DNA from: Cyanobacteriota bacterium
GTDB lineage: Bacteria > Cyanobacteriota > Cyanobacteriia > PCC-6307 > Cyanobiaceae
Length of the DNA stretch: 64,000 nucleotides
NCBI GenBank assembly: GCA_046052125.1
Contig: JBJOMY010000001.1
Location: 608,001 to 672,000 of the forward strand
Direction of reading: 5' to 3'
The notes under the pieces: model-generated
Told to the model about the DNA's origin: nothing
Database searches by the model: none
Seen by the model: the letters and a program-made list of their open reading frames with translations, nothing else
Made by a program: the position numbers and the translations under genes
Part shown: one piece after another, positions 35,136 to 63,530 of the stretch
Layout: every line of letters starts with the position of its first letter
How positions within the stretch are numbered: position 1 is the first letter of the stretch

Positions 35136-35248
35136 TCCTGCAGGGTGAAGGCGCAGGCGGCCAGCGGCAACAGCCGCCAACCAACCAGAGGCGCCGGCCT
35201 AGTGAGGGCAGGGGATCTCGGCGGGCTGGGTTCTTCGCGGGGGGAAGG

Positions 35249-43777: not shown

Positions 43778-43867
43778 TCCTCGATGGTACACATCCATTG
43801 CGGGAGGGGCTTGGGCGATTACAATCGGATCAGTCAACCAGGGCAAGTACAGGGGCTCGCATGGAGC

Positions 43868-46357: not shown

Positions 46358-46362
46358 CAGCC

Positions 46363-49300: not shown

Positions 49301-49980
49301 CGGTCGGTCTCGACATCAGCCGCCTCGGCCTGATGGTGATGCTGGGCCAGCCCAAGACCACAGCCGAATACATCCAGGCCAGCAGCCGCGTCGGCCGCGA
49401 CGACCAGCGCCCTGGCCTGGTGGTGGTGCTGCTCAACCCCAACCGACCGCGCGACCGCTCCCACTACGAGCGCTTCAGCTTCTGGCACTCGGTTTTCTAC
49501 CGCGATGTGGAAGCCACCAGCGTCACCCCTTGGTCGTCCAGAGCCCTGCAGCGGGGGCTGCCGGCCATCACCGTGGCCCTCGCCCGGCACCTCAGCCCCG
49601 CGCTCAGCTGGGCCAAGGATGCAGGAAACGCTGAGGCGATCGATGCCATTCAGGCGGAGGTTGCCCAACGGCTCGGTGATCGGGCCCGCCGCTCCGCCCC
49701 CAGCAAGGCGCTCAGCGAACACACCGAGGCCGAGGTGCGCCAGCGGGCCATGAACCTGCTCGACAAGTGGATCCGCATTGCCCGCGACAATGGCGGCCTC
49801 CTTCAGTACGGCCGTGAGGCGGGTGAAGTGGCCCCCCTTCTCCATACCCCGCTGGACCCCGATCTCAAGGAGCTCAAGGCCATGGAGCAGGAGTTCCTGG
49901 CCAACTGGAGCCTGCGCGATGTGGAGCCCAGCGCCGCGCTGATCCGCCAACGCCCCGATGGCGATGGGGAGGTGAGCTGA
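46363..49980 (+). CDS. drmA: DISARM helicase DrmA
   Basis: FPTGGGKTEAYLG, RYTLRLLT, QDELHLISGPLG, ATNMISVGLDI, YIQASSRVGR. Confidence 0.95.
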   Translation: MESNPSPLIQDESSPEGHPLTSNATSAAVRDQLIRALELDLVGPTPALLAELDAEGRGEEASELREELLDRPPNRWYQTGFLIPSETSLGDRADDAADDEFAGLDGQNLSPKRKSNASGDDTGASEAGPARRVFFTCSVGLSLLIPPATGLEVTVHWAVYKPTAPPEDSKADEAWLREPHSEPLSLPAELFDPNGRSAQSKEVPGSDGLLLRWHLRPAPADQGYPPGAVAVSLFLTNERSFEGRSAEDRDRASAYQVQLDVACSAGFLERRDPRAADLAINANDWDHRVNNLHYRGDHEFAVGHNISVAPRIDANGACHRISTTWLPQATVEKVLPRVGELEAAGLALSMPDLDRLAGEGAGPVQTALRPLVKAYTDWIEKQGAAAAKASPQQQATATELLQEATKQARRIERGIEALENEQVRLAFAIANRVMAAAARQRFGVMRNQNPDAVKPQWRPFQLAFVLMNLVGMAEPTDADRDTIDLLFFPTGGGKTEAYLGLAAYTLVLRRLRHGGSIESAGMSVLMRYTLRLLTLDQLGRASTLICALELERRKDPKLLGQWPFEIGLWVGQSGTPNKLGHKGDGDDNSARSRVLAWSGGDNKPIPIDNCPWCGTELGKASLHDDRPAVARGVFRLLPDADQPKELRVCCRNRACRFSGDSTLPLVAVDEMLYQRLPAFVIATVDKFAALPWVGATGKLFGRVSHAQPGKGFFGPSDGTEQAGAPLPHGLEPPDLIIQDELHLISGPLGSMGGLYEAVIDELCARQVETSAGVQTVRPKIVASTATVRRASQQMQALFGRCSPPAVFPAPGPDRRDSFFSYTASVSEAQGRIYVGVSAPGRNIKALLLRVGLALMSTAQKLYAQAEKERKAREKRGEDKGPNPVDPYMTFLGYFNTIKELGITRRLLEEEVTSLLTTYDQRRRLNESSTRYARRKIANEPLELTSRVPTSEVSTTKARLELSFDNEKQRVDTALATNMISVGLDISRLGLMVMLGQPKTTAEYIQASSRVGRDDQRPGLVVVLLNPNRPRDRSHYERFSFWHSVFYRDVEATSVTPWSSRALQRGLPAITVALARHLSPALSWAKDAGNAEAIDAIQAEVAQRLGDRARRSAPSKALSEHTEAEVRQRAMNLLDKWIRIARDNGGLLQYGREAGEVAPLLHTPLDPDLKELKAMEQEFLANWSLRDVEPSAALIRQRPDGDGEVS

Positions 49981-51902
49981 TGCCGCGTCAGCAGACCAGC
50001 CGTCCCCAGGGCGAGGTGCGTCACAGCCAGCTGATCACCACCTATGGCCCAGGCGCCATGGTGGATTTGCCCGATTGCTCCGTTGTGATCGGTGGCCTCA
50101 ACTTCTGGATGTATGGCCCCGATCAGCCCCCCGAGGAGATTGATGAACCGCGCCTGATTGCCAAGCTGCGCCAGAGCCTCAATGTCGGCTCCCTGCGCTT
50201 GCGCAAACCCCCTATGCATGACGTTGGGCCCGGGGGCCAGAGCCGTCCCGGCGGCATCCGCAGTCCTGAGTTCCCCAACTGGTTCGTGGCCCAGCTGGAT
50301 CGAACAGAGACCTTTGAGGGCAAGACCTATCGCAGCCGGCCGCTGGTGGAGGGCGCCCGCCTCGACAAGCGCAAGTACGTCGATGCGGATCGGAAGGCAC
50401 ATCGCGTCGTACCGGTGCGCTTCGTGCAGAGCTGCCCCAACGGCCATCTCAGTGACATCGACTGGCGTGAATTCGTGCATCGCGGCAAAACCACCTGCCG
50501 GGCCACGCTTTGGCTCGATGAGGCCGGGGCTGGCAACGACTTCACCGAGATCTTTGTGCGCTGCTCCAATCCAACGTGCATGGAGAAGCACGGGCGCCGG
50601 CAGCTGTCGGAGGCCAAGCAAAAACTCAAGGGCGACGATGACGAAAGGCCCGCGCTCGGTTTCTGCCAGGGGCATCGGCCCTGGCTGGGACCGTTCGGCC
50701 AGGAATTCTGCGACAACGGCAAAGGCAAGGGCGGCAGTTATGCCAATCGCCTGCTGGTGCGGTCTGCCAGCAACGCCTACTTTCCCGAGCTGATCTCGGC
50801 GATCTCCATCCCCGAGCCGATCGACGCTGTGCGGGAGGTGATCAGCAATCATCTCAAGGCCTTTGAGAAGATCACCAGCCCCGCCAAACTCGAAGTCTGG
50901 CTGGAGGACTACGCTCCCGACCACATCAAGGATCCTCTCGCTGGTACAGCGCCTGCTGAGATCTTCGAGGCTCTCGAAGCCATCCGTGGTGGTGAGGCTG
51001 CTCCCGAGAAGACCGAGGCCCTCAAGCGACAGGAACTTCGGGCCTTGGTCGGCCCCATCGATGGGCTTCAGCGCGGCAGGGGCAGCAGCCGCTTCGAAGC
51101 CGAAAATCTGGATCTATCGGCCAAGCCAGCCTGGTTTAAGCAGCGCGTCAACCGGGTGTTGAAGGTTCACCAGCTGAGAGAAGTGATGGCCCTGCTCGGC
51201 TTCACCCGTCTGGAGCCCGTGGTGAGCCAGATTGATGGTGATCCCCTGGATCTGGGCGTGAAACGCGCCAAGATCGATGTAAAGGAAGAAACCTGGCTGC
51301 CGGCCGTGGAAAATCTCGGGGAAGGCATCTTCCTCAGCTTTGATCCAGACGCGATCCGCACCTGGATCAAGAGCGCTGGAGCTGCGCAACAGCTCTCCAA
51401 ACACCGTGACGCCTTCAAGATCTGGAACAAGGAGCACGGGCTCACGGAGGACAAGTTTCAGTGGCCTGGCGGCGCCTACGTGATGCTGCACAGCCTTGCC
51501 CATCTGCTGATCACCGAAGCGGCTCTGGATTGTGGGTATGGGGCCTCAGCGATCAAGGAGCGGATCTACGCCTTCGATGACATTGGCTACGGCATCCTTC
51601 TCTACACCGGAGGCAGTGGATCCGAGGGTTCACTCGGAGGACTGGTGGGCCTGGCTGATCGCATCGATGACCTGCTGGCGATGGCGCTCGAGCGAGCCGC
51701 CCTGTGCTCCAACGACCCCTTCTGCGCCAGCCATGACCCCAACAGCGAATTGGAGAAGCGTTATGCGCATGGCGCCGCCTGTCATGGCTGTCTGCTGATC
51801 GCCGAAACCAGCTGTGAACGCCGCAATGAGTTTCTCGATCGAGCCCTCGTCGTGCCCACCCTGATTCAACGCGATGCGGCCTTCTTCACCGATGGGCCCT
51901 GA
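49980..51902 (+). CDS. drmB: DISARM DrmB (DUF1998)
   Basis: RHSQLITTYGPGA; LHSLAHLLI; CSNDPFC...ACHGCLLIAETSCE. Confidence 0.95.
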   Translation: MPRQQTSRPQGEVRHSQLITTYGPGAMVDLPDCSVVIGGLNFWMYGPDQPPEEIDEPRLIAKLRQSLNVGSLRLRKPPMHDVGPGGQSRPGGIRSPEFPNWFVAQLDRTETFEGKTYRSRPLVEGARLDKRKYVDADRKAHRVVPVRFVQSCPNGHLSDIDWREFVHRGKTTCRATLWLDEAGAGNDFTEIFVRCSNPTCMEKHGRRQLSEAKQKLKGDDDERPALGFCQGHRPWLGPFGQEFCDNGKGKGGSYANRLLVRSASNAYFPELISAISIPEPIDAVREVISNHLKAFEKITSPAKLEVWLEDYAPDHIKDPLAGTAPAEIFEALEAIRGGEAAPEKTEALKRQELRALVGPIDGLQRGRGSSRFEAENLDLSAKPAWFKQRVNRVLKVHQLREVMALLGFTRLEPVVSQIDGDPLDLGVKRAKIDVKEETWLPAVENLGEGIFLSFDPDAIRTWIKSAGAAQQLSKHRDAFKIWNKEHGLTEDKFQWPGGAYVMLHSLAHLLITEAALDCGYGASAIKERIYAFDDIGYGILLYTGGSGSEGSLGGLVGLADRIDDLLAMALERAALCSNDPFCASHDPNSELEKRYAHGAACHGCLLIAETSCERRNEFLDRALVVPTLIQRDAAFFTDGP

Positions 51903-52714
51903 TGGCAGCGCCCTTCCCCAAGCTGAGCACCGCGGAACTGGAAACCCTGCTGGCGGCACTGGAGTCCCAGCACGGCGGTACCGGCTTTCTCGCCGACAGC
52001 CTCGCTGATCCACCGGCTTTCCTGGCCAGGATTGGTCTGAATGCTGGCCCCGTTTCACTGGTCGCCTGGCTGGAGCGTTGGTGCGCTGCAGGCGGCAGTC
52101 AGGAGGCTTTACGCATGACCGTTCAAGCTCTGTTGGATCAGCGAAGTCGTGAAGCGCTCGCTCACTCCATCGAACTGGTGTGGTCGGGCCCCGATGCCGG
52201 AGCAGGCGCGATCACCCGCGATCAGTCAGTGCTGATTCGTCAGTTGGTGGAACGTGCCGAACAGCGCCTGTTGCTCACCACCTACGCCTTCTACAAGGGG
52301 CCGTTCATCAAAGCGTTGTTCGAGCTGATCCGCGAGCGCATGGTCGCGTTCCCAACATTGCAAGTTTGCATGGTCTGCAACATTCAGCGTGATCGCGGAG
52401 ACACCTCCTCTCCCGAGGCCTTGATCCGCAAGTTTCAGCAACAAACCTGGTCCCGCCTTTGGCCCGAATCTCCAGCACCTTCCTTGTTCTTTGATCCCCG
52501 ATCCCTCTCTCTTGAAAGAGAGAAGGCTGTCTGTCACGTCAAAGCGGTGGTGGCCGATCAAGAGGTGCTTGTGACCAGCGCCAACCTCACCGATGCCGCC
52601 CAGCTCTCCAACTTCGAGCTTGGCCTCCATCTCAGAAGTTCTGCCCATGCCGATGACGTCTGGGACCATTTTGATCGCCTGATTCAACAGGGCCTCTTGC
52701 AACGCGTTGGTTGA
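51902..52714 (+). CDS. drmC: DISARM phospholipase D-like nuclease DrmC
   Basis: ELVWSGP; HVKAVVAD (HxKxxxxD); TSANLT; NFELG. Confidence 0.92.
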   Translation: MAAPFPKLSTAELETLLAALESQHGGTGFLADSLADPPAFLARIGLNAGPVSLVAWLERWCAAGGSQEALRMTVQALLDQRSREALAHSIELVWSGPDAGAGAITRDQSVLIRQLVERAEQRLLLTTYAFYKGPFIKALFELIRERMVAFPTLQVCMVCNIQRDRGDTSSPEALIRKFQQQTWSRLWPESPAPSLFFDPRSLSLEREKAVCHVKAVVADQEVLVTSANLTDAAQLSNFELGLHLRSSAHADDVWDHFDRLIQQGLLQRVG

Positions 52715-53214: not shown

Positions 53215-53817
53215 ATGGCTTCCCCCGCCACCTCCCTCAGCCGCTCGGCCCTCAAGGCCCGTGATGCCCTGGTGCTGGAGCACCTGCCCCTGGCTGATGC
53301 CATTGCCTCTGCCACCGCCCGGCGCCTGTCCCCGCTGGTGGAGCGGGAAGATCTGATCCAGGTGGCCCGAGAAGCCCTGGTCCGTTCCGCTCCCCGCTGC
53401 AGAGCCGGTGAGCCGGCAGCGCCTTATCTGCGCCGCTGCATCAGCGGGGCGCTGCAGCACCACCTGCGCGATCGGGTGCGGCTGGTGCGCGTGCCACGCC
53501 GTCTGCATGAGCAGGGGCAATGCCCGCTGCGGCACCTCAGCCTCGATGCCAGCACTGATGGCGAGCCCTGCCTGCTCGATCAGCTGGCTGCTCCGGAGGC
53601 CGAGCCGGCCATGAGCGAGGCCATCAATGGCCTGGCGCTGGAGCAGCTGGTGGATCAGCTGCCCGCCGCCCAGGCCACAGCCCTGAAGCTCACCGTCCTG
53701 GAAGGCCTGTCGCTGCGGGCTGCGGCGGAGCGGCTGGAGATCAGCGCCATGTCTGTGATGCGGGCCCAGAAGAAGGCCATCGCGGCTCTGCGCCAGCAGC
53801 TCTCTGGTGGGGGCTGA
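53215..53817 (+). CDS. Sigma-70 family (SigF-like) RNA polymerase sigma factor
   Basis: Region 2 EDLIQVAREAL...HHLRDRVRLVRVPR; region 4 LEGLSLRAAAERLEISAMSVMR. Confidence 0.88.
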   Translation: MASPATSLSRSALKARDALVLEHLPLADAIASATARRLSPLVEREDLIQVAREALVRSAPRCRAGEPAAPYLRRCISGALQHHLRDRVRLVRVPRRLHEQGQCPLRHLSLDASTDGEPCLLDQLAAPEAEPAMSEAINGLALEQLVDQLPAAQATALKLTVLEGLSLRAAAERLEISAMSVMRAQKKAIAALRQQLSGGG

Positions 53818-53828
53818 GGCCCCTCCAC

Positions 53829-54023
53829 TCAGGCCTGCTCGAACACCAGCGTGGAGAGCGGCCACCAGCCGCTACCGCCTTCGTCGTAGGAGAGCTCCAC
53901 CAGCGAATCGGTGTCGCTGATTGCGGCTGCCAGGTTCAGCACAGTGGCGCCGGTCGTCGGGCTGATCCGATCGCGCCAGCAGCGCGCTCCAACCTCTGGC
54001 TGTGGTGCGGGCGTCATGGTCAT
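53829..54023 (-). CDS. Small hypothetical protein (SH3-like), last gene of the capsid operon
   Basis: 64 aa; 3 bp from the upstream gene; LVELSYDEGGSGWWPL. Confidence 0.6.
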   Translation of the reverse strand: MTMTPAPQPEVGARCWRDRISPTTGATVLNLAAAISDTDSLVELSYDEGGSGWWPLSTLVFEQA

Positions 54024-54026
54024 GGA

Positions 54027-55073
54027 TCAGGGGCTCACCATCACCCGGTTGCCAGTGCCGCTGTTGCTCACTCCTGCGAACTGACGGCGCTGGGGTGACC
54101 AGCAGATCGATCGCCAGCCGGTACTGGCTGGGGTGCTGCGCAACGTCCAGGTGAGGCCATCGGGGCTGGTCATGATCCGGTTGCCGCTGCCGCTGGTGGC
54201 CACGGCCACAAGCAGCTCACGCTGTGGTGCCCAGCAGAGGGAATTCCAGGAGATATCAGCTGCCGATGTCCGGCTCGTCCAGGTGATGCCATCGGGGGAG
54301 GTCATCACCCGGTTGCCCGTGCCGCTGCTGCTCAACGCCACCAGCAGGCCGAGCTCCGCTGCCCAGCAGACCGACACCCAGTTGTTGCCAGTGGCCGCGG
54401 TCCGCAGGGTCCAGTTGCGGCCATCCCTTGAGGTCATCACCCGCTGGGTGCCGCCGGTGCTGCCCACGGCCACGAACAACCCCAGCTGCGGGGCCCAGCA
54501 CACCGACCGCCAGACCTGATCAACAGCAGCAGGGCCGACCGTCCACTGGATGCCATCGCTGCTGGTCATCACCCGGTTGCCCGTGCCGCTGCCCGCCACA
54601 GCCACCAGTAAACCCAGCTCGGGCGACCAGCAGATCGAGGTCCAGCTGTTGTCAACCGGCGTCTGCCGCAGGGTCCAGCTGCGGCCATCCGCGGAGGTCA
54701 TCACCCTGCTGCCGGTGCCGCTGTTGCTGACGGCCACGAACAGCCCCAGCTCGGCCGCCCAGCAGAGCGCCACCCAGTTCTGATCAGCCGCTGCCTGAGG
54801 GGTCCAGCGGATGCCATCGCTGGACGTCATCACCCGGTTGCCGCTGCCGGTACCGGCCGCAGCCACGTAAAGCCGCAGCTCGGGCGACCAGCACACCGCC
54901 TCCCAGCTGTTGTCCGCCGCCGAGCGAACGGTCGACCACTGGATTCCGCTGATCCCCAGCACCGGCGGCGTGCCCAGCTGCTCCGCCAGCGCCGCAGCAG
55001 GCAGCTGATAGGTGCCCGCCTCAGGGCCCACAGGGCGGGTGATCGCCAGCAGGTCGCTTGGTTGGAGTGTCAT
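54027..55073 (-). CDS. Seven-repeat beta-propeller (Asp-box-like) fibre/adhesin protein
   Basis: Seven ~44-aa repeats W..(V/I)CW(S/A)(P/A)(E/Q)LGL.VAV..SG.GNRVMTS.DG..W; short N-terminal QPSDLLAITR. Confidence 0.85.
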   Translation of the reverse strand: MTLQPSDLLAITRPVGPEAGTYQLPAAALAEQLGTPPVLGISGIQWSTVRSAADNSWEAVCWSPELRLYVAAAGTGSGNRVMTSSDGIRWTPQAAADQNWVALCWAAELGLFVAVSNSGTGSRVMTSADGRSWTLRQTPVDNSWTSICWSPELGLLVAVAGSGTGNRVMTSSDGIQWTVGPAAVDQVWRSVCWAPQLGLFVAVGSTGGTQRVMTSRDGRNWTLRTAATGNNWVSVCWAAELGLLVALSSSGTGNRVMTSPDGITWTSRTSAADISWNSLCWAPQRELLVAVATSGSGNRIMTSPDGLTWTLRSTPASTGWRSICWSPQRRQFAGVSNSGTGNRVMVSP

Positions 55074-55750
55074 CAGGGCAAGGCCGGCAGGCTGCTGATG
55101 TCCAGCGGCATGTAGTCGCCGGCCGGCTGGGCGGTGGCCATTGCCGCTTTGAGGGCGGCGGCATCCACAGCTGCGCCCTCAGTGCCGGCGGTGAGGTCCT
55201 CCCCGCTGGCCAGCCGCAACACGCCGGCGCTCTCGGTGGTGGCCGCATCAACGCTGAGCAGCGGCTGGGCCGGATCGCTCTCATCCACGCTCAGCGGTGC
55301 CGCCACCTGGATACGGATCACACCGGCGCCATCAGGGCCCAGGGCGGCGTTGGCACTCCAGTTGTTGCCGTCAAACAGCAGCAGATCCCCCTGGGCGATC
55401 GGCTGGCCAGCGATACCGCTCCAGCTGGCCAGGGCCACACCGGAGGCACTGGCCAGGTAGACATCGCCCACGGCGGCATCGGCCGGGGGCTCGGCGGTGG
55501 TGGGATCGATGGCGCCGCGGTAGTGCAGGGCTCCGGGGATCGCGGCATGCAGCGTGCCGTCTGCGTCCACCGAGAGATTGGTGCCGGGCCGGATCGCACC
55601 GATCGCCGCCGCCGTGGCGGGAGAGAGCATGTAGGCCTTGACCTCCTCGGCCGTCGCCCGGTAGGGGGTGCTGCCGCGCTGCACCAGCAGCAGGTCGGTG
55701 GGTTGGGGCAGGGAGCGGCCGGCAATGCGGCTCTCGGTGCTGGTGGCCAT
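55073..55750 (-). CDS. Phage fibre-like structural protein
   Basis: ATAAAIGAIRPGTNLSVDADGTL and ATTESAGVLRLA fibre-type motifs; YRGAID...GDVY...GDLLLFDGNNW. Confidence 0.75.
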   Translation of the reverse strand: MATSTESRIAGRSLPQPTDLLLVQRGSTPYRATAEEVKAYMLSPATAAAIGAIRPGTNLSVDADGTLHAAIPGALHYRGAIDPTTAEPPADAAVGDVYLASASGVALASWSGIAGQPIAQGDLLLFDGNNWSANAALGPDGAGVIRIQVAAPLSVDESDPAQPLLSVDAATTESAGVLRLASGEDLTAGTEGAAVDAAALKAAMATAQPAGDYMPLDISSLPALP

Positions 55751-55788
55751 GGCGATGAGGGAAGAAAGGGGGGAAGTGGAACGAGAGA

Positions 55789-56031
55789 TCAGGGCGGCAG
55801 GAGGCTGAGCAGGCGCAGATCCAGCCCGATCACCACCACCCCATCGCTGGCAGCAGCACTCACCAGCGGCGCCAGGGTCTCCACTGCCGTGATGCCACCC
55901 GTGGGCGGTGGTTCAGGGGTGCCGCCGTCCTGCAGTTGGGCCTGGCCCAGGAAGATCACTCCCTGCGGTCGGGTGTTGCTGCGGCACTGCGCCGTCAGTT
56001 CGGCCAGCACAGCCGGATCGGGAGTGGCCAT
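55789..56031 (-). CDS. Small structural-type protein
   Basis: 80 aa; GGITAVETLAPL; C-terminus LDLRLLSLLPP. Confidence 0.6.
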   Translation of the reverse strand: MATPDPAVLAELTAQCRSNTRPQGVIFLGQAQLQDGGTPEPPPTGGITAVETLAPLVSAAASDGVVVIGLDLRLLSLLPP

Positions 56032-56111
56032 CGGTGCCAGGGCGGTGCTGATGAGCTGTTGCCAGGCCCCAGCCAGGTATTCGCTGACCGGGGCAGACCT
56101 GGCGGCTGGGA

Positions 56112-56846
56112 TCAGAGCAGGGCATCCCCCAGCTCCTGGGCCGCGAGATCCGCCGCATCGCTGCTGCCCTCGCTGCCACTGGCCTGGGCTTCCAGCGCCA
56201 TGGCCTGCTCCACCAGTTCCGCCTTGGTCTGGCTGCCATCGAGTTCCACCCCATAGACGCTGGAGCAGAACTCCACAATCTGGGCCTTGGTCATCGCCTG
56301 GAAGTCGGTGGGCTCAGAGGCCAGCAGGGCCTCCCCGGCAGCACTGCTGGTGTCAGTCGGCTCGCCGGTGGGCGTGGACGTGGACTCAGCGGTTGGAGAT
56401 TCGGGCTCCGTTGCCTCCGGCAGCTCCGGCTCGCTGACCAGCAGATCCAGAGGCGCACGCTGAGGCTCCAACGGCTCTGTCACCGGCTGCTCCTGCTCGG
56501 GCGGCTCTGGCTCGTCCTCGCTGCCATCAAGAGGGGGCGGGTCATCGCTGCCGCTGGTTGAGCTGAGCAGCTCCCAGCCCAGGGCCTGCCAGCCGGCCAG
56601 GTGCACCGGCCAGATCGAGCGGGTCACACCGTCCTTGCCGATCAGCAGCTGACTGGGCGGCAGCAGCGAGGCATCGCCCACCCCTGGATCGGGGGTGACG
56701 GTGAGACGCTGCTCCGGGCCGGAGAGACGCACGGGTGTCGAGACGGGGTTGCTGCTGTCGAGGGGCTGCAGCAGCTCCAGCGGCAGGGCCTCAGCTCCTG
56801 CTGCTGCTGTGGTGAGGGTGTCGAGGGTGTTGTCCATGGCGCTCAC
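56112..56846 (-). CDS. Acidic protein with C-terminal HeH/Rho-N-like motif (capsid-associated)
   Basis: DFQAMTKAQIVEFC...VELDGSQTKAELVEQ; E/P-rich linker. Confidence 0.65.
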   Translation of the reverse strand: MSAMDNTLDTLTTAAAGAEALPLELLQPLDSSNPVSTPVRLSGPEQRLTVTPDPGVGDASLLPPSQLLIGKDGVTRSIWPVHLAGWQALGWELLSSTSGSDDPPPLDGSEDEPEPPEQEQPVTEPLEPQRAPLDLLVSEPELPEATEPESPTAESTSTPTGEPTDTSSAAGEALLASEPTDFQAMTKAQIVEFCSSVYGVELDGSQTKAELVEQAMALEAQASGSEGSSDAADLAAQELGDALL

Positions 56847-56847
56847 C

Positions 56848-57282
56848 TCACAGCCCCTGGTTGGCGGTCAGCGCCACGGTCATCCCCACCGGCGTGGCCG
56901 GCGACACCGCTGCCCGCGCCAGCCGCAGGCAGGGCGGTGTGATCAGCTCGCTGTCGGCTGGATTGATCAGCAGGGCAGCACCGCTGATGATCGCCTCCAC
57001 CTTGCCGCCAGCAGCGGGGATGGCGACGGCGGCGGCGGTGATCCAGCTGCCGGCGTTGCCGTCCGCCAGCAGGGGTGCCAGCTCCAGGGTCACGGTCACC
57101 GCTTCGCTGTGGCCGGGGTGGGAGGCCACCAGCACAAAAGAGGAGCAGGCATCGAGGTCAGTACCGAGGTTCACGACATCGCCGCTGCTGCGCACGTGCT
57201 CGTAGCAGTCAGTCGCGGAGTGGTTGATCCAGCCGACGAGCACCGTCTGGGCGTCGAGCAGCCGGGTGGCTTGAGAAGTCAT
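56848..57282 (-). CDS. Putative capsid cement/decoration protein (Bbp16-like)
   Basis: 144 aa, beta-rich, directly after the MCP; RLLDAQ...SGDVVNLG N-terminus. Confidence 0.55.
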   Translation of the reverse strand: MTSQATRLLDAQTVLVGWINHSATDCYEHVRSSGDVVNLGTDLDACSSFVLVASHPGHSEAVTVTLELAPLLADGNAGSWITAAAVAIPAAGGKVEAIISGAALLINPADSELITPPCLRLARAAVSPATPVGMTVALTANQGL

Positions 57283-57344
57283 CAGGGGTCTCCTGGGTGT
57301 GGGGGTTGAGGTGAGGGGATGCGTTTCGTGGGTTCAGGGTTGAC

Positions 57345-58283
57345 TCAGACCACCAGCGGCATGGGCGCCACGTTGTAGAGACGGGCAGCGGCTTTGCGGT
57401 TGCAGACGGCAAAGCCCACGTACCAATCCACCCGCGTGCGGAACACCGGCGCGTCATGCACCTCCCCGAAGTCCCGCACCGAGATGCCGTAGCGGCCCTC
57501 GAACGGGCCCTGCAGTCCGCACACCGCCGCGTCACCCAGGACGCAGCAGTAGATGGAGGTGGTGTCGCCCGGTTCGTCGTAGCCGAGTACCGCGTTGCCC
57601 TCGGCGTCCTCCTCCACCAGCAGGATCTCCACCCCCTCGAAGTAGTGCCGCCCGTCGATGACTTCGTAGAGGTCACCGCCGGCCTGGCGGGAGGCGGTGC
57701 TGATCTGGCGGCGGGCAGCCTTGCTGGCGATCAGCACCTTGTCGCCGCCGTAGCCGATCACGCTGTCGGTCAGCGCCTCCAGCGCCAGCAGGTTGAGGGT
57801 GCTGCCGCCGTTGTCGACCGTCTGGTCGTCGCCTGGCACCAGCCGCTTGCTCAGACCGTTGAAGGCCCGCGGATCAAAGGTGTCGTCGCCGTTGATGATT
57901 GCCGCCTCCAGGGTGAGGCGCATCGAGCGCACCTTCATCTCGGTCTGGGCAGCACGGGCCTCAGGACCCTGCAGGTCGACGATCGAACGGTCCACATCCA
58001 GATCGCCGCCGAAGAGGTGCACGAACTCCGAATCGGAGTTGATTACCCCATAGCTCTGGCGGTAGCCCTCGTTCACGGCCCGGAAGCCGACGCGGGGGAG
58101 TTTGGTTTCAGCCGGGAAGCTCAGCGAGCCGCCCACGAGGTTGCGGAACGGCAGGCGGCGCAGCAGCTCCCCCTCCGCAAAGGTCTTGAGCACCGCCAGC
58201 TGTTCAGCACGGCGGGCGTATTTCTGCGCCTCGATCAAGGTCAGGCCCAAGGGCACGCTCCCGGGGCCTCGCCCCAGTGACAA
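57345..58283 (-). CDS. Major capsid protein (HK97 fold, epsilon15/BPP-1-like); true start may be TTG 58250
   Basis: LTLIEAQK...LPF...LPRVGFRAVNEGY...GGDLDVDR...IINGD..DPRAFNGLSKRL...TSIY...RTRVDWYVG...AAARL. Confidence 0.88.
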   Translation of the reverse strand: MSLGRGPGSVPLGLTLIEAQKYARRAEQLAVLKTFAEGELLRRLPFRNLVGGSLSFPAETKLPRVGFRAVNEGYRQSYGVINSDSEFVHLFGGDLDVDRSIVDLQGPEARAAQTEMKVRSMRLTLEAAIINGDDTFDPRAFNGLSKRLVPGDDQTVDNGGSTLNLLALEALTDSVIGYGGDKVLIASKAARRQISTASRQAGGDLYEVIDGRHYFEGVEILLVEEDAEGNAVLGYDEPGDTTSIYCCVLGDAAVCGLQGPFEGRYGISVRDFGEVHDAPVFRTRVDWYVGFAVCNRKAAARLYNVAPMPLVV

Positions 58284-58455
58284 CAGCTCCTGTTGCCAGG
58301 TCCGAGCCGGAGTGTCAGAGAACGGTCAGCTCAGGGGGGCGGGTGGTGGCTGGCGGCTGGAGGGCAGGCGCTCCGCATGGTGCCCCGCATCTGCTCGTCC
58401 TGAAGGCCGACGCCGATGGGGGGCGCGGTGGTCGCGTCCTGCCTGCAACACCGCC

Positions 58456-58668
58456 ATGGCCACCACACCCGTTGCCCCGGCCTGCCCGATCCGCCTCATC
58501 TCCTTCCGTCTGGCTGCCAGGGGCAGCACGGAAGCGCGGCGCCTGTTCCTCGATGGCGAGGGGCACATCAGCGCTGATCCCCACTGGCTGCCTCGGGAGC
58601 AGGCCCTGCTGCTTGCACACAATCAGCAGCTGATCTGGGGTTCAGCCGCCCGGGTGATCGTGCACTGA
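58456..58668 (+). CDS. Small hypothetical protein (paralog of 31400..31648)
   Basis: CPIRLIS...LFLDGEGHISADPHWLPREQALLLAHNQQ. Confidence 0.7.
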   Translation: MATTPVAPACPIRLISFRLAARGSTEARRLFLDGEGHISADPHWLPREQALLLAHNQQLIWGSAARVIVH

Positions 58669-58905
58669 GCACCCCAGGGCTAGTGGGTTTGGGATCGCTG
58701 GCCCTCCCTCACTGGCCATGGACTGCTCCAATGCGTCCATCCAGTCCCAGAGAAGCCTGTGCCTGTCCTTGCCGTCCAGCTCGCTCGCCGGCACAGCCTC
58801 CGCAAGGGCGCCAGGCTGCAGGGACTGAACGATGTCCACCGCATGGGGTTCGTCAAGGACCTGCACCATCTCGATGCCAAAGCCGTCGTCTGTGCAGAAA
58901 AACAC
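58642..58905 (-). CDS. Hypothetical protein or remnant
   Basis: 87 aa; globular-looking first 65 aa; start uncertain. Confidence 0.35.
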   Translation of the reverse strand: MFFCTDDGFGIEMVQVLDEPHAVDIVQSLQPGALAEAVPASELDGKDRHRLLWDWMDALEQSMASEGGPAIPNPLALGCSVHDHPGG

Positions 58906-59487
58906 CGCGTAGTGGATGGGGCCTCCAGCTCAGCACCTCTCCTTTGCGGGAATAAGGGTCTCAGGCTGCCAGTACGCGGAGGTGATCGGATAGGAGCCAC
59001 TGCGCCGGTTGCGGAGGAAGTCTCAGGGGGGCTGCACATTCCCCCAACTCCAGACAGCTAGGTGAGAGCGCTGAGATTGGGCTGCAGCGGTGAGATACAC
59101 CACGGGGGCATGCTCTGATTTGGCCAAGAGCAACGACCGCAGCCGTTGTGGACGCAGAGTCTGTCGATGGCTAAAGGCAATGATATTTACCACTACGACT
59201 TATGCATTGAGCACCGGTCCAGACAGGTGGTTTATAGACTCGGGTACCACTGCCAACCTTTACGTAAAATGACTCTAATCTCTTGCGAGGAGCGGAGTCG
59301 ACCCGAACAATGGCAGGGGGCCTGCCCCAGCTATTAAAAGAGAGGAAGCTATACAAGATGGTCCTTGAAACCATCCATTAAAGGGCTGGATTGATTGATC
59401 AGCACTCCTATCAGAAGCAAGGTGGGGCCTTGACCTAGCTGCAGACTTGCCATGCCAGCTATACTGAGCGGAGTTCACGACAGGCCA

Positions 59488-59637
59488 GTGACAGGTCAGG
59501 ATGATCGCCGACAGAGGCTAGACGAAGACTTTAGAAGATCATTTAATCACGAGAACAAGAAAAAGCCATCCGGGGACCCTCCTTTAAAGCTCAAGAAGTC
59601 AGAGCAAAAGCAACCCGGCAAAGACGAGCGCAAATAA
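59488..59637 (+). CDS. Small Lys/Arg-rich peptide upstream of the DUF6338-like gene
   Basis: GTG at 59488; ends 21 bp before the next gene. Confidence 0.4.
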   Translation: MTGQDDRRQRLDEDFRRSFNHENKKKPSGDPPLKLKKSEQKQPGKDERK

Positions 59638-59658
59638 ACACAGCCAGCCTGCTTTGCC

Positions 59659-60288
59659 ATGGTAACGGCTCCGCAAATTTCTGATTTCATCGCCCTGGTA
59701 GCGCCAGGCTTTGTTGCCGTAGAGGTATTCAGGTCGGCCTACCCAGCCAAGACAAGATCCGACAAGTCTAATCTTTATCTGTACGTTGTATATAGTCTCA
59801 TTTGCGCAACCATTCTTTCGCTGCTCTCGCACCATTCTTCGATATCATCTTTTAGCCTTCAAGTTCCCGCAAAAGGCTCATCATTCTATCCATTTCTCCT
59901 GCTAGCAGTTGGGTGGCTTGTAGGCCAGGCCTGCATATTCTGCTACTGGATCCGACATCTTATTCCTCGCAAGTGCGACTCCCTAAGGTGGCTTCGTCCC
60001 GATCCTCAGAGTACCTGGAATAGAATCAATGACGACTTGGACGATCAGTGGGTATATGTTTTTCTTAAAGATGGATCGATCTATGTGGGACAAATCCGTT
60101 TCTGGAACTTTGACCCTGATTCCCCGAATCAGGATTTTTTTCTGGATAGAGCAAGAAGAGTAGATGAACGCCTAGACCCTAGGGGGCAAAAGTCGGCGAA
60201 GTGGAAGGAAAGATACTTGGTTGAAACTGGAGTCTATATCAGCACTGCCGAAGTATCGCGAATTGAGTTTCAAGGCTCGTACGTATAA
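59659..60288 (+). CDS. DUF6338-like membrane protein
   Basis: LVAPGFVA first TM; three TMs; STWN...WVYVFLKDGSIYVG...DFFL...GVYI...IEF; low GC. Confidence 0.75.
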   Translation: MVTAPQISDFIALVAPGFVAVEVFRSAYPAKTRSDKSNLYLYVVYSLICATILSLLSHHSSISSFSLQVPAKGSSFYPFLLLAVGWLVGQACIFCYWIRHLIPRKCDSLRWLRPDPQSTWNRINDDLDDQWVYVFLKDGSIYVGQIRFWNFDPDSPNQDFFLDRARRVDERLDPRGQKSAKWKERYLVETGVYISTAEVSRIEFQGSYV

Positions 60289-60420
60289 TTTTTATGCATT
60301 AATGCGTAATCCGGCACGGCCATTCGCCTGGCCCGCCGCAGGCAGAGTCGCCACCCCATCGTGGCACTTTGATTTAAGCTTCTTCCAGATAGGCAATAGC
60401 CAGCATTGTATGGAGCAGCC

Positions 60421-60960
60421 ATGAAAGAGTTGCGTGAATGGATCCAGCTTGCCTTTGCTGTGATCGGCGGGGGTTTAGCCTCCGCAGCTTTTCTCCAAAA
60501 TCAGCGCCAGCGTCGCGTCGAAAACGCCCTTAAGTTCGTTGCCCTCTTCAAAGAAAGCCTTCGGGAAGGTGATATAGGGCACTGGGTGGAACTATTTCAG
60601 GCCGCAAGTGAACCTGCGGGTTGCCCCCCTGGTCATTTCAGAACGAGCAGGAACTCATGCATTTCCATAGTAGAATACTTCTCGGAAGGGAGCGGAGATG
60701 ATTATGCAATCTCGCGCATGGCGAATAGCCTAGATGCCGTGTGTTATCAGGTAGTTACAGGAGCCGCAGATGCACAAACTGTCTATCATGAAATTGGGCA
60801 ACTGCTCTGGCACATGAATCTCTGGCTTCGCGCGGTACCCGCTCCTGCAGGGAAACTCTCATTTCTTGAACAGTCATTCCCTAACATTGCACGGTTCTTT
60901 TCTAAGTTCGGGAGAGCAGCGCAAACCTGGCCTTCCAGAACATTTGCTTATATTGAATGA
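60421..60960 (+). CDS. Hypothetical protein with N-terminal TM (low GC)
   Basis: WIQLAFAVIGGGLASAAFL, then a helical domain. Confidence 0.7.
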   Translation: MKELREWIQLAFAVIGGGLASAAFLQNQRQRRVENALKFVALFKESLREGDIGHWVELFQAASEPAGCPPGHFRTSRNSCISIVEYFSEGSGDDYAISRMANSLDAVCYQVVTGAADAQTVYHEIGQLLWHMNLWLRAVPAPAGKLSFLEQSFPNIARFFSKFGRAAQTWPSRTFAYIE

Positions 60961-61460
60961 CGACTGGCTTCCCCATCATTAAAATACCAACAAAACCGTT
61001 TTCTTGGATTTTTTGCGCGGAAAGATTCCCGCATCGCTGAAGTTTGTGGCTTCTACTTTGTGTCTCACTGGTAGTGAACTTTGTACCCCAGCTGTAGGTA
61101 CTGCAGCGCGTCACGTCGCCCTCACCCATGTCGGCCTGAACACGGTGCTGAAATCAATCAGCAGCACTTTGCCGATATTGCGATCTCGAACACCAACTAA
61201 TAGCCCGTCATAACCGCCAGGATGGTTTGGAGTGGGAGCGGCGTGGTGGCACAACTGAGGCCGGCCACCGTGGTGCGGCGGCGCGCCGCCGTCGATCGGG
61301 TGTGGGGAGATCTCTCATCCCGGCAGAGTGCCAGGGGCTGCGGCATGGCATCTCCATTCAATAGCGAAAACCGCGCCGCAGAGATCGTGGTGCACGCGAT
61401 CAGCAGCGGGTTACTCGTACTTAACGGAGCTGGCAAGGGCAGTGGTCAGCACCCCATCCC

Positions 61461-62195
61461 ATGACCACCCCGATGAGCGCCGAGCGGTTTGCCGATCGCT
61501 TCCGCTTCTACAAAGGCCAGCCGCAGCAGCAGCGAGGCGTGCAGCAGCTGTATGCCGCCATCGGCAGCAGCAACCAGGGCACCGAGATCCTCGATGAGCA
61601 GGCACCCTGGGCCGTCACCTACAGCGAGCAGCCAGCCCAGCCGCCGGCTCCCACAGGCGGCCTTGATCCCCGCGGCTCAGAAGAAGCCGGCATGGCCGGC
61701 CCGCAGATGGCCGCCCCGGTCCAACCCGGTGATTCCTACCTGCTGGTGAACGACCGGGACCAGGACATGGAGGCCTACGACCACACCGGCCGTTTCCTCT
61801 GGAGGATCCCCTGCCTGGCCCGCGGCCAGGGCGCCGACACTGACTGGAGTCAGACCAGCACTGACACCCCGCCAGGCCTCTACAAGCTCGGCCAGCTCTA
61901 CGCCGACTACGAGCAGAACCCAAACCCGCCCTGCTCCGACACCGCCATGGGCTACGGCTGGTACTCCTTTGACATGGAGGAGCTGGAGGGCCAGGAGGCC
62001 AAGGTCGGCCGGGCCGGGATCATGCTCCACGGCGGCGGTTCAGCCTGCGGCTGGCCCGGGGCCTGGGCACCGCTGCAGCCCCTGCACCCCACCCTCGGTT
62101 GCGTTCGCCTACACAACGCTGATCTGCGCGACAAGGTGCTGCCCCTCTACCGCCAGGGCACGGTCTATGTGGGGGTGTTCCAGGAAAAAAAGTGA
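61461..62195 (+). CDS. YkuD/L,D-transpeptidase-domain protein, endolysin-like
   Basis: TDTPPGLY...GIMLHGGG...TLGCVRLHN; N-terminal FRFYKGQPQQ..GVQQL segment resembling cyanophage lysin N-termini. Confidence 0.8.
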   Translation: MTTPMSAERFADRFRFYKGQPQQQRGVQQLYAAIGSSNQGTEILDEQAPWAVTYSEQPAQPPAPTGGLDPRGSEEAGMAGPQMAAPVQPGDSYLLVNDRDQDMEAYDHTGRFLWRIPCLARGQGADTDWSQTSTDTPPGLYKLGQLYADYEQNPNPPCSDTAMGYGWYSFDMEELEGQEAKVGRAGIMLHGGGSACGWPGAWAPLQPLHPTLGCVRLHNADLRDKVLPLYRQGTVYVGVFQEKK

Positions 62196-62791
62196 CGTCG
62201 GGCCAGGCCCCAGGGGGATGCACCTCTGGGGAGCCATCCCTGGCCCACGCCAACCTGCAGCACTGGATGGACTTCTTCTGCAGCAGCGCCGTGACCGAGG
62301 CCAGCCTGGGTGTGATCCAGCCACTCACGGCAGCGGAGGCCTGCGGTTTCCTCGGCTGCATGGTGGTGGAGACCGGCGATCCGGAGCTGGAGAACCTCGA
62401 TGTGATCGAAGCCGGCAGTGGAGCCGGCCGCGGCGCCATGCAGTACACGGGTGTCCGCCGCACGGCCTACGACGCCGCCCGCCTCCAGGCCATCGCCGGT
62501 GGGATCGACCCCAATAGCAACGCCTGGCAGGAGCAATACTTCGCCGAGGAATACGCCGGCCTGCACGATCCGCCCCAGGGCTCGCTGATCGGCTGGACCC
62601 GGGTGTTCGAGGACAGGCCTCAAGGCATGGATCCAGCAGCAGCAGCGGCTTACTGGACCGGTTCAGCTGCAGCAGCCGAGGGCTATTTCAGACCCGGCAC
62701 ACCCCACACCGAGCGGCGCCAGGCAGAAGCCGATCGGATCTGGGGACTGGTTCAGAGCGGCGCGCTGCAGCTGCCGCCCTCTGGGGCCTGA
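62192..62791 (+). CDS. Phage tail-lysozyme-like protein
   Basis: ACGFLGCMVVETG...GRGAMQYTGVRR...YFRPG...RRQAEA matches the Phage_lysozyme2 pattern. Confidence 0.65.
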   Translation: MTSGQAPGGCTSGEPSLAHANLQHWMDFFCSSAVTEASLGVIQPLTAAEACGFLGCMVVETGDPELENLDVIEAGSGAGRGAMQYTGVRRTAYDAARLQAIAGGIDPNSNAWQEQYFAEEYAGLHDPPQGSLIGWTRVFEDRPQGMDPAAAAAYWTGSAAAAEGYFRPGTPHTERRQAEADRIWGLVQSGALQLPPSGA

Positions 62792-62810
62792 TCGCCAGGG
62801 AGCAGCAGCG

Positions 62811-63077
62811 ATGCAAGCCCAGACAGAGCCCCGGCCGCCCAAGCCGCCGTTCGACCGTGAGCGGTTCGTCTTCAAGACCCTGGCGGTGGTGATCGGCACC
62901 CAGCTGCTGATCTATTCCCTGGCCGCCGGGGTCTGCGGCCAGCGAGCAATGGAGGGCCGGCCGATCGGTCAAATCTGCCCGGGCACGCTGGAGCAGCTGC
63001 AGGGCGGCTTTGATTCCACCCTCAACCTTCTGCTGGCGCTGCTGGGCGGAGCAGCGCTGACGCGAATGGATCGGTAA
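62811..63077 (+). CDS. Small two-TM protein, holin candidate
   Basis: Two hydrophobic segments and a charged C-terminus; follows the peptidoglycan enzymes. Confidence 0.5.
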   Translation: MQAQTEPRPPKPPFDRERFVFKTLAVVIGTQLLIYSLAAGVCGQRAMEGRPIGQICPGTLEQLQGGFDSTLNLLLALLGGAALTRMDR

Positions 63078-63191
63078 CGCCTGGAAGCGAGCGGGGGGCT
63101 TGCTCCGGGCCTCTCCAGTCTGAGGCCCGTCCTGCGGCCGCGCCTCCGCTGGGATCGGTCCGTCGCTGCGCCACTCCTGGCGCCGATCACC

Positions 63192-63530
63192 ATGGCCACG
63201 CTCTCTGCTTCTGCCTCACCGTTCTGCCGGCCTGAGGAGGATCCGTTCCTGCTGCTGGAGTCCTGCGGCAAAGCCATCGAATCGATCCTCAGGGGCCATG
63301 CCGGCCGGCCGCTGCGCCGCACCTGGATTGATCGGCCCTATGGAGAAGAGGAGATCTCGCGCCTGGAGGAAGAGGTGTTGCCGGCGATTCAGCAGTGTCT
63401 GGCGCGGGTCGATGAGATCGATAGCGCCCTGGAAGCAGAAGCCGAGCTGAGCTCCCGCCAGCAGGTGGAGGCAGAAGCCGCGTTGCGCCGCGGCGGGCTG
63501 CAGTGCAGTGGGGCCATGCCGGTCATCTGA
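63192..63530 (+). CDS. Hypothetical protein
   Basis: 112 aa; EEDPFLLLES...TWIDRPYGEEEISRLEEEVLPAI. Confidence 0.7.
   Translation: MATLSASASPFCRPEEDPFLLLESCGKAIESILRGHAGRPLRRTWIDRPYGEEEISRLEEEVLPAIQQCLARVDEIDSALEAEAELSSRQQVEAEAALRRGGLQCSGAMPVI

Follow-up and report, generated by a model that had tools for sequence, protein, structure and literature searches.

What kind of element keeps the genes for a capsid and none that can be recognised for a tail? The question is raised by a stretch of 64,000 nucleotides, hereafter the window, from a Cyanobacteriota bacterium of the family Cyanobiaceae (genome G000; 2.64 Mb, 64% GC, 99.96% complete; the window is G000:C1:608001-672000), in which the initial annotation had described a minus-strand operon headed by a major capsid protein (MCP) gene as a capsid-only particle module without portal, terminase, protease or tail. 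Open reading frames (ORFs) were called across C1:596-745 kb and then scanned against Pfam and PHROGs. Coordinates marked extended carry the numbering past base 64000, adding 608000 gives the position on G000:C1, and G numbers other than G000 denote compared genomes or records, G202 being an IMG/VR record. The operon sits within a 72-kb element (~11392-83726, extended), which we named type B, and it is very probably the distal half of the head module of an integrative element from the PSS2 / S-CBS2 / S-CRES cyanosiphovirus lineage, standing in tandem at tRNA-Lys. Judged by its sequence, the element derives from a temperate siphovirus of the PSS2/S-CBS2 type and appears to have kept all but the tail.

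The head module and its place in the element

The operon and the sigma factor that converges on it comprise the following genes:

57345-58283, minus strand: MCP, 312 aa (phrog_212, 4.9e-54; Pfam GP7, PF20911, 2.1e-12)
56848-57282, minus strand: 144-aa beta-jellyroll, candidate capsid decoration/cement protein (AlphaFold2 (AF2) model, marginal structure matches)
56112-56846, minus strand: 244-aa acidic low-complexity protein with a C-terminal HeH-like motif (weak match to phrog_8608, 8.6e-4, residues 183-219)
55789-56031, minus strand: 80-aa protein (conserved ORF)
55073-55750, minus strand: 225-aa fibre-like protein (viral Atlas neighbours)
54027-55073, minus strand: 348-aa protein, candidate fibre or receptor-binding head (seven ~44-aa repeats)
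53829-54023, minus strand: 64-aa protein, the operon's last gene (65-79% identity, dN/dS 0.23-0.42)
53014-53817, plus strand: sigma-70-family factor, convergent on the MCP operon (Pfam r2, r4 and ECF matches)

The seven minus-strand ORFs were confirmed where the initial annotation had placed them, tightly packed and with a GC content of 0.78-0.88 at third codon positions (GC3) against 0.44-0.63 at second positions (GC2). All seven are conserved in relatives with a ratio of nonsynonymous to synonymous substitution rates (dN/dS) below 1, and are therefore genuine genes rather than chance ORFs. The phrog_212 match extends across residues 14-306 of the 312 of the MCP, and PF20911 scored 47 bits against a cut-off of 27, a full-length profile match to the HK97-fold MCP of PSS2/S-CBS2 type. 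Against four close relatives the MCP had a dN/dS of 0.01-0.04 at dS 0.32-0.39. The convergent sigma factor, with regions 2 and 4 both present, is a core gene, found at the same position in G106, G022, G093, G143, G202, G201 and the copy on C3 of G000. A divergent small gene reported upstream of the MCP was not clear, the nearest conserved ORF (58642-58905) lying on the same strand as the MCP.

The portal and terminase genes held to be missing were found, together with a scaffold gene, on the same strand of the same element, 1-12 kb past base 64000. Their seeming absence arose because the window edge cut the element, of which 19.7 kb more lie to the right. The left boundary and the genes from the window end to the right boundary were as follows:

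11346..11391, no strand: left boundary (attL-like), partial tRNA-Lys 3' copy inside a 194-bp copy at 11199-11391
63503-64273 (extended), plus strand: ORF crossing the window end, 256 aa, no family
64962-65930 (extended), minus strand: scaffold (phrog_206, 5.3e-11)
65927-67165 (extended), minus strand: 412-aa LysM protein (LysM domain)
67169-67666 (extended), minus strand: 165-aa adaptor-like neck protein (structure match to gp5)
67683-69323 (extended), minus strand: portal (phrog_145, 4.1e-18; PF13264, DUF4055)
73281-73988 (extended), minus strand: second sigma factor (phrog_351, 3.4e-17)
74005-75903 (extended; G000:C1:682005-683903), minus strand: large terminase, TerL (phrog_38, 2.6e-75)
76678-79446 (extended), minus strand: primase, 922 aa (phrog_35358, 3.7e-130)
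79713-81107 (extended), plus strand: helicase
81089-81463 (extended), plus strand: VRR-NUC nuclease
81410-81709 (extended), minus strand: helix-turn-helix (HTH) protein
82017-83552 (extended), minus strand: integrase, PSS2-like, 511 aa (homology to PSS2 gp101)

The element thus holds TerL, portal, scaffold and MCP, as a prophage does, and has a capsid and packaging of its own, as does a capsid-forming phage-inducible chromosomal island (cf-PICI). With terminase and portal present there is no need to borrow packaging, and the capsid-only description no longer applies. The seven operon ORFs, portal, TerL and scaffold are all intact in G000, and no prohead protease was recognised anywhere in the scans. 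TerL is 632 aa long and its PHROG match begins at residue 152. Upstream of the gene, neither G000 nor the relatives scanned (G106, G022) showed a recognisable small terminase, and the N-terminal extension of TerL might take that role.

The 165-aa protein is predicted to be a neck adaptor. Its AF2 model is helical (pLDDT 73), and the top VIA match among 48,161 chains was 8keg_A (Z 9.1, root-mean-square deviation (rmsd) 4.8, 107/132 aligned), followed by a match of Z 5.9. 8KEG is the gp5-neck fibre complex of cyanophage A-1(L), in which, by the account given there, the gp5 ring binds the portal, anchors the neck fibres and joins the tail-docking hexamer (PMC10966104). Foldseek against the PDB returned no match for this model at E <= 0.001, a profile search of the PDB with the protein's alignment gave nothing below E 0.01, and a predicted complex with the portal (score 0.00) yielded no verdict and was counted neither way. 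The N-terminal domain of the neighbouring 412-aa LysM protein has no relatives outside the lineage, and its Atlas search gave no usable match.

As for the operon's smaller proteins, the 144-, 244-, 80-, 225- and 64-aa products matched no Pfam family, and PHROGs gave only the weak phrog_8608 match on the 244-aa protein, the operon's most variable gene (50-69% identity to relatives). The AF2 model of the 144-aa protein is a beta-jellyroll (pLDDT 84.1), a fold that fits the cement-like role first proposed, although its structure matches reach only chance level. The top VIA matches, 8fwg_l1 (Z 8.0, rmsd 5.0, 110 aligned) and 9hz8_0, the Agrobacterium phage 7-7-1 capsid (Z 7.5, rmsd 5.2, 111 aligned), both stand at that tool's chance level; they are whole chains of similar length from phage particle reconstructions. 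Foldseek against the PDB gave nothing at E <= 0.001, with the jellyroll cement protein of BPP-1 (3j4u_H) further down the list, and against BFVD only uncharacterised viral proteins (best E 1.3e-3). The 144-aa family is confined to these elements (66 matches, each at least 52% identical and all named hypothetical). The 225-aa protein has 404 homologues, all named hypothetical, and a dN/dS of 0.17-0.37. Its closest Atlas clusters are viral and the fibre families among them serve as leads only; a profile search of the PDB with its alignment found nothing below E 0.01. The 348-aa protein, described earlier as a seven-blade propeller, does carry seven propeller-like repeats after an N-terminal part of ~40 residues (dN/dS 0.23-0.46), but its Pfam matches (DUF6242, ANAPC4_WD40) fall below cut-off. 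A common N-terminal anchor of the 225- and 348-aa proteins was considered and dropped as too weak (BLASTP, 10 residues, E 0.17; hhalign, E 0.004, probability 8.5%).

The closest phages by identity were PSS2, S-CBS2 and S-CRES1-3 (MCP 38-41%, scaffold 26-30%, portal 27-29%, TerL 35-37%), the MCP being 41% identical to that of PSS2 over 96% of its length and 40% to that of S-CBS2. The portal matched eight phage records, all of them PSS2, S-CBS2 or S-CRES and all long-tailed siphoviruses. In PSS2, S-CBS2 and S-CRES1, the MCP stands at the end of the structural region, after the tail genes and directly behind the scaffold, with TerL and portal far off, and all three phages encode sigma factors. 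The distance of the MCP from portal and terminase, and the sigma factor that had been thought a special feature, are therefore traits of the lineage. TerL is followed directly by a sigma factor in S-CRES1 (gp19-gp20) and in the G000 element alike, and dispersed head genes are common to the cyanosiphoviruses and the element, whose integrase is PSS2-like. In contrast, portal and scaffold-MCP are separated in the cyanosiphoviruses by a long module of tail genes (major tail protein, tape measure of at least 1431 aa, other tail proteins, fibres), of which the element has no homologues; its own portal-to-MCP interval contains nothing besides cargo, the lysis cassette and the genes for the adaptor-like protein, the LysM protein and the scaffold.

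The intact tRNA-Lys lies at 130248-130319 (extended), 66 kb rightward of the window end, and no tRNA was found inside the 64-kb window itself. A 46-bp copy of its 3' part at 83727-83772 (extended; 97.8% identity) forms the right boundary. On the left, the 194-bp copy consists of the tRNA 3' part and the integrase-side flank, and is 89.7% identical to C1:738098-738291. The 511-aa PSS2-like integrase and the tRNA-Lys 3' copies at both ends make up the integrase and flanking attachment (att) repeats of a prophage. Type B stands in tandem at this tRNA with a 46-kb element of a second type, type A (83773-130247, extended), and the array also holds a degenerate third att copy. The integrase and the boundaries were counted as support for mobility.

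Search for a tail across the family

No tail gene was recognised in the element, the whole genome or relatives, and on this point the initial annotation stands. Among the ~190 ORFs of the 150-kb region, and in the relatives scanned, no PHROG or Pfam tail family was found, the sole exception in the 150-kb scan being an autotransporter with a weak match to a fibre family. The annotated proteins of PSS2, S-CBS2 and S-CRES1 were also compared by tblastn with the G000 genome, five 80-kb relative regions and two IMG/VR records. Only TerL, sigma factor, portal, scaffold, MCP, primase, exonuclease, endolysin and integrase gave matches, plus a collagen repeat in the second G000 copy. None of the 17 tail-module proteins of S-CRES1 (gp70-gp87, including the major tail protein, the 1431-aa tape measure and a tail protein) was matched, nor was any tail or structural protein of S-CBS2 and PSS2 except scaffold, MCP and endolysin. 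PF10145, PF05709, PF13550 and PF04984 were absent from the 99.96%-complete G000 genome. The BLAST comparisons carry more weight than these hidden Markov model (HMM) searches because PF10145 misses two of three known tape measures. Over 201 family genomes PF10145 gave four matches, and only G194 and G113, where the match was weak and below cut-off, also hold the MCP; we gave this little weight. The element scans recognised none of the nozzle, hub, tube, needle or ejection protein families, and the long-tail genes of a prophage (tape measure, tube, distal tail/baseplate) were not found. The case first made for the locus had hinged on terminase, portal and tail genes being absent from the rest of the element; terminase and portal were found there and a tail was not.

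The element recurs across the family, in picocyanobacteria of freshwater and of coastal waters. The MCP was found in 42 of the 201 sampled family genomes (17 of 64 genera, with up to six matches per genome) and the portal in 51, placing the element in 17-19 of the 64 sampled genera. In the genus of G000, an intact copy was found in G000 only, of eight genomes sampled, and many fragmentary MCP and portal copies with stop codons occur across the family. A common gene order was shared by G106, G022, G093 and G077. It runs from HTH/Bro, primase, exonuclease, RusA, TerL and sigma factor to a first variable slot, continues with portal, 165-aa protein, LysM protein, scaffold, a 91-aa protein and the divergent lysis-like cassette to a second slot, and ends with MCP, the 144-, 244-, 80-, 225-, 348- and 64-aa genes, the convergent sigma factor and a third slot. 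Nine IMG/VR contigs with an MCP 96-100% identical were all colinear with ~53.0-74.9 kb of the window numbering as far as each contig extends. G179 and G099, at 72% MCP identity, are also tail-less, the 30-kb scaffold-to-MCP gap of G179 holding a DISARM set, AbrB and a staphylococcal nuclease (SNase). Counting the second copy in G000, the tail-less order recurs in G106, G022, G093, G077, G179, G099, that copy and the nine IMG/VR contigs.

IMG/VR lists record G202 (49.9 kb) among those with direct terminal repeats, and an exact 99-bp overlap of its ends was confirmed, a sign of a circular assembly. The record encodes integrase, regulators, VRR-NUC, helicase, primase, TerL, sigma factor, portal, a homologue of the 165-aa protein, LysM protein and scaffold, followed by the lysis-like cassette, MCP operon, sigma factor, McrBC and type I restriction-modification, toxin-antitoxin, Rad52 and Gam. 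The rest consists of small early-region ORFs without known role, and except for the LysM protein there is no unexplained ORF above ~390 aa, so that, judged from its ORFs, G202 has no space for a long tail module.

Selection was estimated by the Nei-Gojobori method for 18 core genes against five relatives (86 gene-by-relative comparisons). dN/dS was below 0.5 in 83 comparisons and below 0.7 in all 86, a signal of purifying selection that includes TerL, portal, scaffold and fibres. Because these values are far below 1, the core genes are maintained rather than decaying. Integration sites differ, being tRNA-Lys in G000 and next to tRNA-Pro in G106; mobility is indicated because the distribution is patchy and multi-copy, the sites differ and a circular assembly exists. 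An argument from sequence distance for recent transfer between genera was rejected, a host gene (GIDA family) having dS similar to that of the element.

The second G000 copy (C3:53.6-112.4 kb) is tail-less, with MCP 61-63%, TerL 57% and portal ~50% identical. Its post-MCP slot encodes 145-, 262- and 155-aa proteins and a 192-aa collagen-repeat fibre protein (phrog_819, 2e-30; PF01391, 6.5e-16). Because this copy has different genes there, including the collagen-repeat protein, the slot after the MCP seems to encode exchangeable fibres. A toxin-antitoxin-like pair precedes its convergent sigma factor, and its portal match has one in-frame TGA. In G143, a stretch at C1:3047-3055 kb contains only the MCP operon, with a 99% identical MCP, and the convergent sigma factor; no portal or TerL match was found in the 40 kb fetched upstream of that MCP. 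Three further copies in G143 have MCP and portal 7-17 kb apart.

Near-identical 31-mers of the MCP operon were found in lake, freshwater, soda-lake and subsurface metagenomes, with 13 runs from 11 studies holding 36-52% of the sampled words; this count leaves out two runs from which the DNA may itself derive. RNA libraries likewise contain the sigma gene, the MCP operon and the lysis cassette, on contigs at least 88% alike from four runs of three studies, and since these data are contigs their depth is unusable for ranking gene expression.

Cargo, defence and neighbouring elements

The remaining features of the element are a lysis-like cassette, an early/recombination module and several blocks of cargo:

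61222..63530, plus strand: lysis-like cassette (80 aa, YkuD, Phage_lysozyme2, 88 aa, 112 aa), divergent from the MCP operon
61461-62195, plus strand: YkuD L,D-transpeptidase-fold protein (Pfam)
62192-62791, plus strand: Phage_lysozyme2 (Pfam)
62811-63077, plus strand: 88-aa protein with hydrophobic stretches (from sequence)
12131..22218, plus strand: early/recombination module (235-aa protein, RecE-like exonuclease, RecT, single-stranded DNA-binding protein (SSB), Fic on the minus strand, Gam-like, Rad52-like, DUF1651)
22266..36552, no strand: cargo (EamA transporter, resistance-nodulation-division (RND) pump of HlyD and AcrB, two-component system, SNase, AbrB-like, 740-aa AAA_33, 344-aa protein)
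36495..52714, plus strand: DISARM-like cargo (SNF2 helicase, MmeI/Eco57I-type methylase, GmrSD, 1205-aa helicase, MZB/DUF1998, PLD nuclease)
59254..61371, no strand: G000-specific low-GC cargo (DUF6338 protein and others; GC 0.56-0.59), between the lysis-like cassette and the MCP operon
69618-73125 (extended), plus strand: G000-specific low-GC cargo insert

The YkuD, lysozyme and holin-like cassette was located as described, with YkuD, Phage_lysozyme2 and the 88-aa protein all in place, and it keeps its relative orientation in relatives. The Phage_lysozyme2 gene behaves as an indel, missing in five of the nine IMG/VR loci, and contigs of three RNA-library runs (X16, X17, X21) join 62195-62201 to 62770-62830 across it. 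The 59254-61371 insertion has no counterpart in any of the nine IMG/VR loci. The four RNA-library runs gave no cover at 59.2-61.4 kb and one X16 contig bridges 58671 to 61430, which we read only as showing the insertion to be G000-specific. Early/recombination genes have homologues in related elements.

The three variable slots hold defence systems and other cargo, with defence in every copy examined: AAA_15 and AAA_22 ATPases in slot 1; the RND pump and two-component system, or DISARM, in slot 2; and DISARM, type I restriction-modification, McrBC or a DUF499/DUF1156 system in slot 3. For 36495..52714 the DISARM label is one that we presume from the domain set rather than from a PADLOC score; the G179 element has a set 41-50% identical to it. 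In G106, VapBC lies inside the head module, between the LysM protein and the scaffold. The RND and two-component cassette (74-90% identical; 22266-30415 in the window) occupies different slots in different genomes, lying in the interval from lysis cassette to MCP in G022, G093 and G077 and beyond the DISARM block in G000. AbrB-like regulator genes (75-92% identical) occur at many G000 sites (C1, C3, C4, C5), inside and outside elements, and are often paired with a secreted SNase/Excalibur nuclease gene (e.g., 32579-32944 and 31687-32436; 86889-88726, extended).

Type A has three copies in G000 (C1:691773-738247; C1:~146-182 kb; C3:~16-45 kb), two directly beside a type B element and the third next to tRNA-Met. 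They encode a PSS2-like integrase, DnaB, DnaG, three sigma factors, an S-CRES1 gp22-like exonuclease, Rad52 and Gam, with an S-CBS2-like endolysin in two of the three copies and no structural gene at all. At the left end of type B, 150 bp of the att copy (11199-11345) resemble the stretch between the type A integrase and the intact tRNA-Lys, which suggests the scar of a further, lost element on the left. The type A element also contains a paralogue of the DUF429 gene located at 9785-10534. Outside the element, the window contains a 1032-aa autotransporter (2233-5331) in a stretch of low GC content (0.51); a 2859-aa ORF just left of the window (C1:595999-604578) is likewise no part of the element.

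Possible readings and known systems

The reading that we favour, if only tentatively, is by analogy with cf-PICIs: the head-only element would fill its own fibre-decorated capsids and take tails from a helper cyanosiphovirus. On induction, it would excise at the tRNA-derived repeats and replicate, and its sigma factors would turn on the divergent late operons. TerL would fill scaffold-built capsids via the element's own portal; the 165-aa adaptor would seal them, the 144-aa protein stabilise them, and the 225- and 348-aa fibres decorate them. The lysis cassette would free tail-less, DNA-filled heads, infectious only after joining tails of a co-infecting or resident cyanosiphovirus (tail piracy), and 10-30 kb of defence and resistance cargo would thereby be moved between picocyanobacteria. 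We infer excision, particle formation, helper dependence and all structural roles besides those of MCP, portal, TerL and scaffold. Of the proposals made at the outset, we retain as the best reading that this is no ordinary prophage and that a capsid-forming satellite obtains its tails from elsewhere; the borrowing of packaging is not retained, and the ideas of a decoy particle and of a dominant-negative device neither gained nor lost support.

Several observations weigh against tail piracy. The element measures 50-72 kb and brings genes for replication, recombination, lysis and sigma factors, which makes it much larger and more autonomous than any satellite described; so complete an element could be expected to encode a tail as well. 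A helper phage is not known, and the G000 genome contains none. Nine proteins without proven role (165, 412, 91, 144, 244, 80, 225, 348 and 64 aa) could form a short tail, two of which (144 and 165 aa) were folded. Tail proteins of the cyanosiphovirus lineage are poorly covered by HMM libraries: in a control, PF10145 detected the tape measure of PSS2 and missed those of S-CRES1 and S-CBS2, one in three. Neither a connector/stopper protein nor a small terminase was identified in the element. The structure matches are marginal, the 144-aa Z of 8.0 standing at chance level and the 165-aa protein having a helical fold, for which chance Z can run high. The RNA-library contigs may include DNA carry-over. 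Finally, the dS of the element (0.26-0.6) is about that of the GIDA-family host gene against the same genomes (0.41-0.63).

It is unlikely, in our judgement, that the element is instead a self-sufficient temperate phage with an unconventional short tail, its siphovirus head module having recombined with a minimal podovirus-like tail. Neck and tail would then be built from the 165-aa, 412-aa LysM and 91-, 80- and 64-aa proteins, with the 225- and 348-aa proteins as fibres or receptor-binding proteins. The element does have all else that a phage needs (integrase, replication, TerL, portal, scaffold, MCP, lysis), including the neck adaptor-like 165-aa protein; the candidate genes are under purifying selection, and the post-MCP slot holds fibre genes, with collagen-repeat tail-fibre PHROG matches in the second G000 copy and, as leads only, the viral fibre-like Atlas neighbours of the 225-aa protein. 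However, none of the families of nozzle, hub, tube, needle or ejection proteins was recognised, the circular 49.9-kb relative has no unexplained ORF above ~390 aa besides the LysM protein, the N-terminal domain of that 412-aa protein has no tie to tail hubs and no relatives beyond the lineage, and the portal's phage relatives are long-tailed siphoviruses in eight of eight records.

A low probability also attaches to a non-transmissible, domesticated or defective prophage lineage, kept for its cargo (DISARM, restriction-modification, efflux, metal resistance) or for capsid interference with cyanosiphoviruses that have related heads, and spread chiefly by vertical descent and occasional recombination. 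Similar islands of Synechococcus RS9917 have been read as relic prophages, at least in the account of PMC2784084. Such a lineage is consistent with defence in the variable slots of every copy examined, with an element dS comparable in magnitude to the value for a single host gene, with the many stop-codon fragments in the family and the in-frame TGA in the second G000 portal, and with the operon-only copy of G143, upstream of which the 40 kb fetched gave no portal or TerL match. Purifying selection, however, acts on all 18 core genes, beyond the cargo; integrase and intact att repeats are retained; the use of tRNA-Lys and tRNA-Pro sites, the multiple copies, the patchy distribution and the circular IMG/VR assembly also speak against such a lineage; and TerL, portal and lysis cassette would be superfluous for interference alone.

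That the locus is an ordinary prophage remnant of one genome, its tail lost in a one-off deletion and the rest decaying, is very improbable: cargo insertions do split the G000 head module and the tandem array does hold a degenerate third att copy, but the tail-less order recurs under purifying selection in all relatives examined, down to 61-72% MCP identity, and the seven operon ORFs, portal, TerL and scaffold are intact with dN/dS far below 1.

Taking tail piracy as the preferred reading, we consider it possible, if somewhat doubtful, that a widespread, prophage-sized head-only family in picocyanobacteria pirates cyanosiphovirus tails and would be a main vehicle by which defence and resistance islands of 10-30 kb pass between genera. 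The capsid-less, PSS2-derived type A elements might in turn ride in its capsids, so that phage, head-only satellite and capsid-less satellite would form a chain of three tiers. To our knowledge, intact prophages are very rare in marine and freshwater picocyanobacteria, and these cells have neither conjugation nor natural competence, which is why the movement of their islands is a long-standing question. The present element is conserved and multi-copy, has capsids and no tail, occurs in about one quarter of the sampled family genomes and is defence-laden in every copy examined. If it is a transfer vehicle, it would be a concrete and testable one and would carry tail piracy over from small enterobacterial satellites to 50-72-kb elements of globally important phototrophs. 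In the literature searched, with subscription-only papers and supplements outside its scope, we found no description of a conserved tail-less element family in picocyanobacteria.

Gene transfer agents (GTAs) are generally described as vertically inherited single-copy clusters that include tail genes, lack an integrase and a replication module, and package DNA of the host. Like GTAs, the element is a phage-derived particle gene cluster under selection. Unlike them, it is present twice in G000, has an integrase, att repeats and a primase/helicase, and shows no recognisable tail; by these features it is not a GTA.

The tycheposons of Prochlorococcus are described as tRNA-targeting elements with a replication module and niche or defence cargo, of which PICI-like ones carry MCP or terS (10.1101/2020.12.28.424599). 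By the same account they are 10-20 kb and without capsids of their own, and the PICI-like ones have one packaging gene and no cargo. The element shares tRNA integration and cargo with tycheposons and differs in its size of 50-72 kb and its full head and packaging set, and was not counted among them; tycheposons solve only part of the question of island movement.

The islands of marine Synechococcus RS9917, as described by Sullivan et al. 2009 (PMC2784084), are bounded by tRNAs, are ~42-65 kb long and carry structural genes, an integrase, a sigma factor, a lysozyme and a P-SS2-like large terminase. The annotation of the PSS2 record gives its MCP as similar to RS9917_04023. Those islands, compared here by their description only, were read as degraded, whereas in the present family the gene order is conserved, the genes are under purifying selection, and several copies as well as a circular form exist. 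If the favoured reading is true, Synechococcus "relic prophages" may be re-read as possibly functional.

The nearest functional parallel is with cf-PICIs, which are roughly 10-15 kb long. The element, at 72 kb in G000 and 49.9 kb in the circular relative and with lysis, recombination and sigma genes of phage type, does not have the small PICI architecture of size and regulatory module. In the account of 10.1101/2025.02.11.637232, cf-PICIs encode terminase, portal and capsid themselves, along with head-tail adaptors and connectors, and lack tail genes; they package their own DNA and were shown experimentally to take phage tails, immune systems are expected in their variable region, and identical or near-identical copies occur in several species and genera. 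Like them, the element has TerL, portal, scaffold, MCP, an adaptor-like protein, defence cargo and no recognisable tail. Unlike them, it is 50-72 kb long and, besides two sigma factors, encodes a large primase/helicase, a recombination module and a lysis-like cassette; it has a scaffold gene and no recognisable prohead protease, and its ancestry is cyanosiphoviral and its host cyanobacterial. At best the element would work like a cf-PICI, and we do not class it as one.

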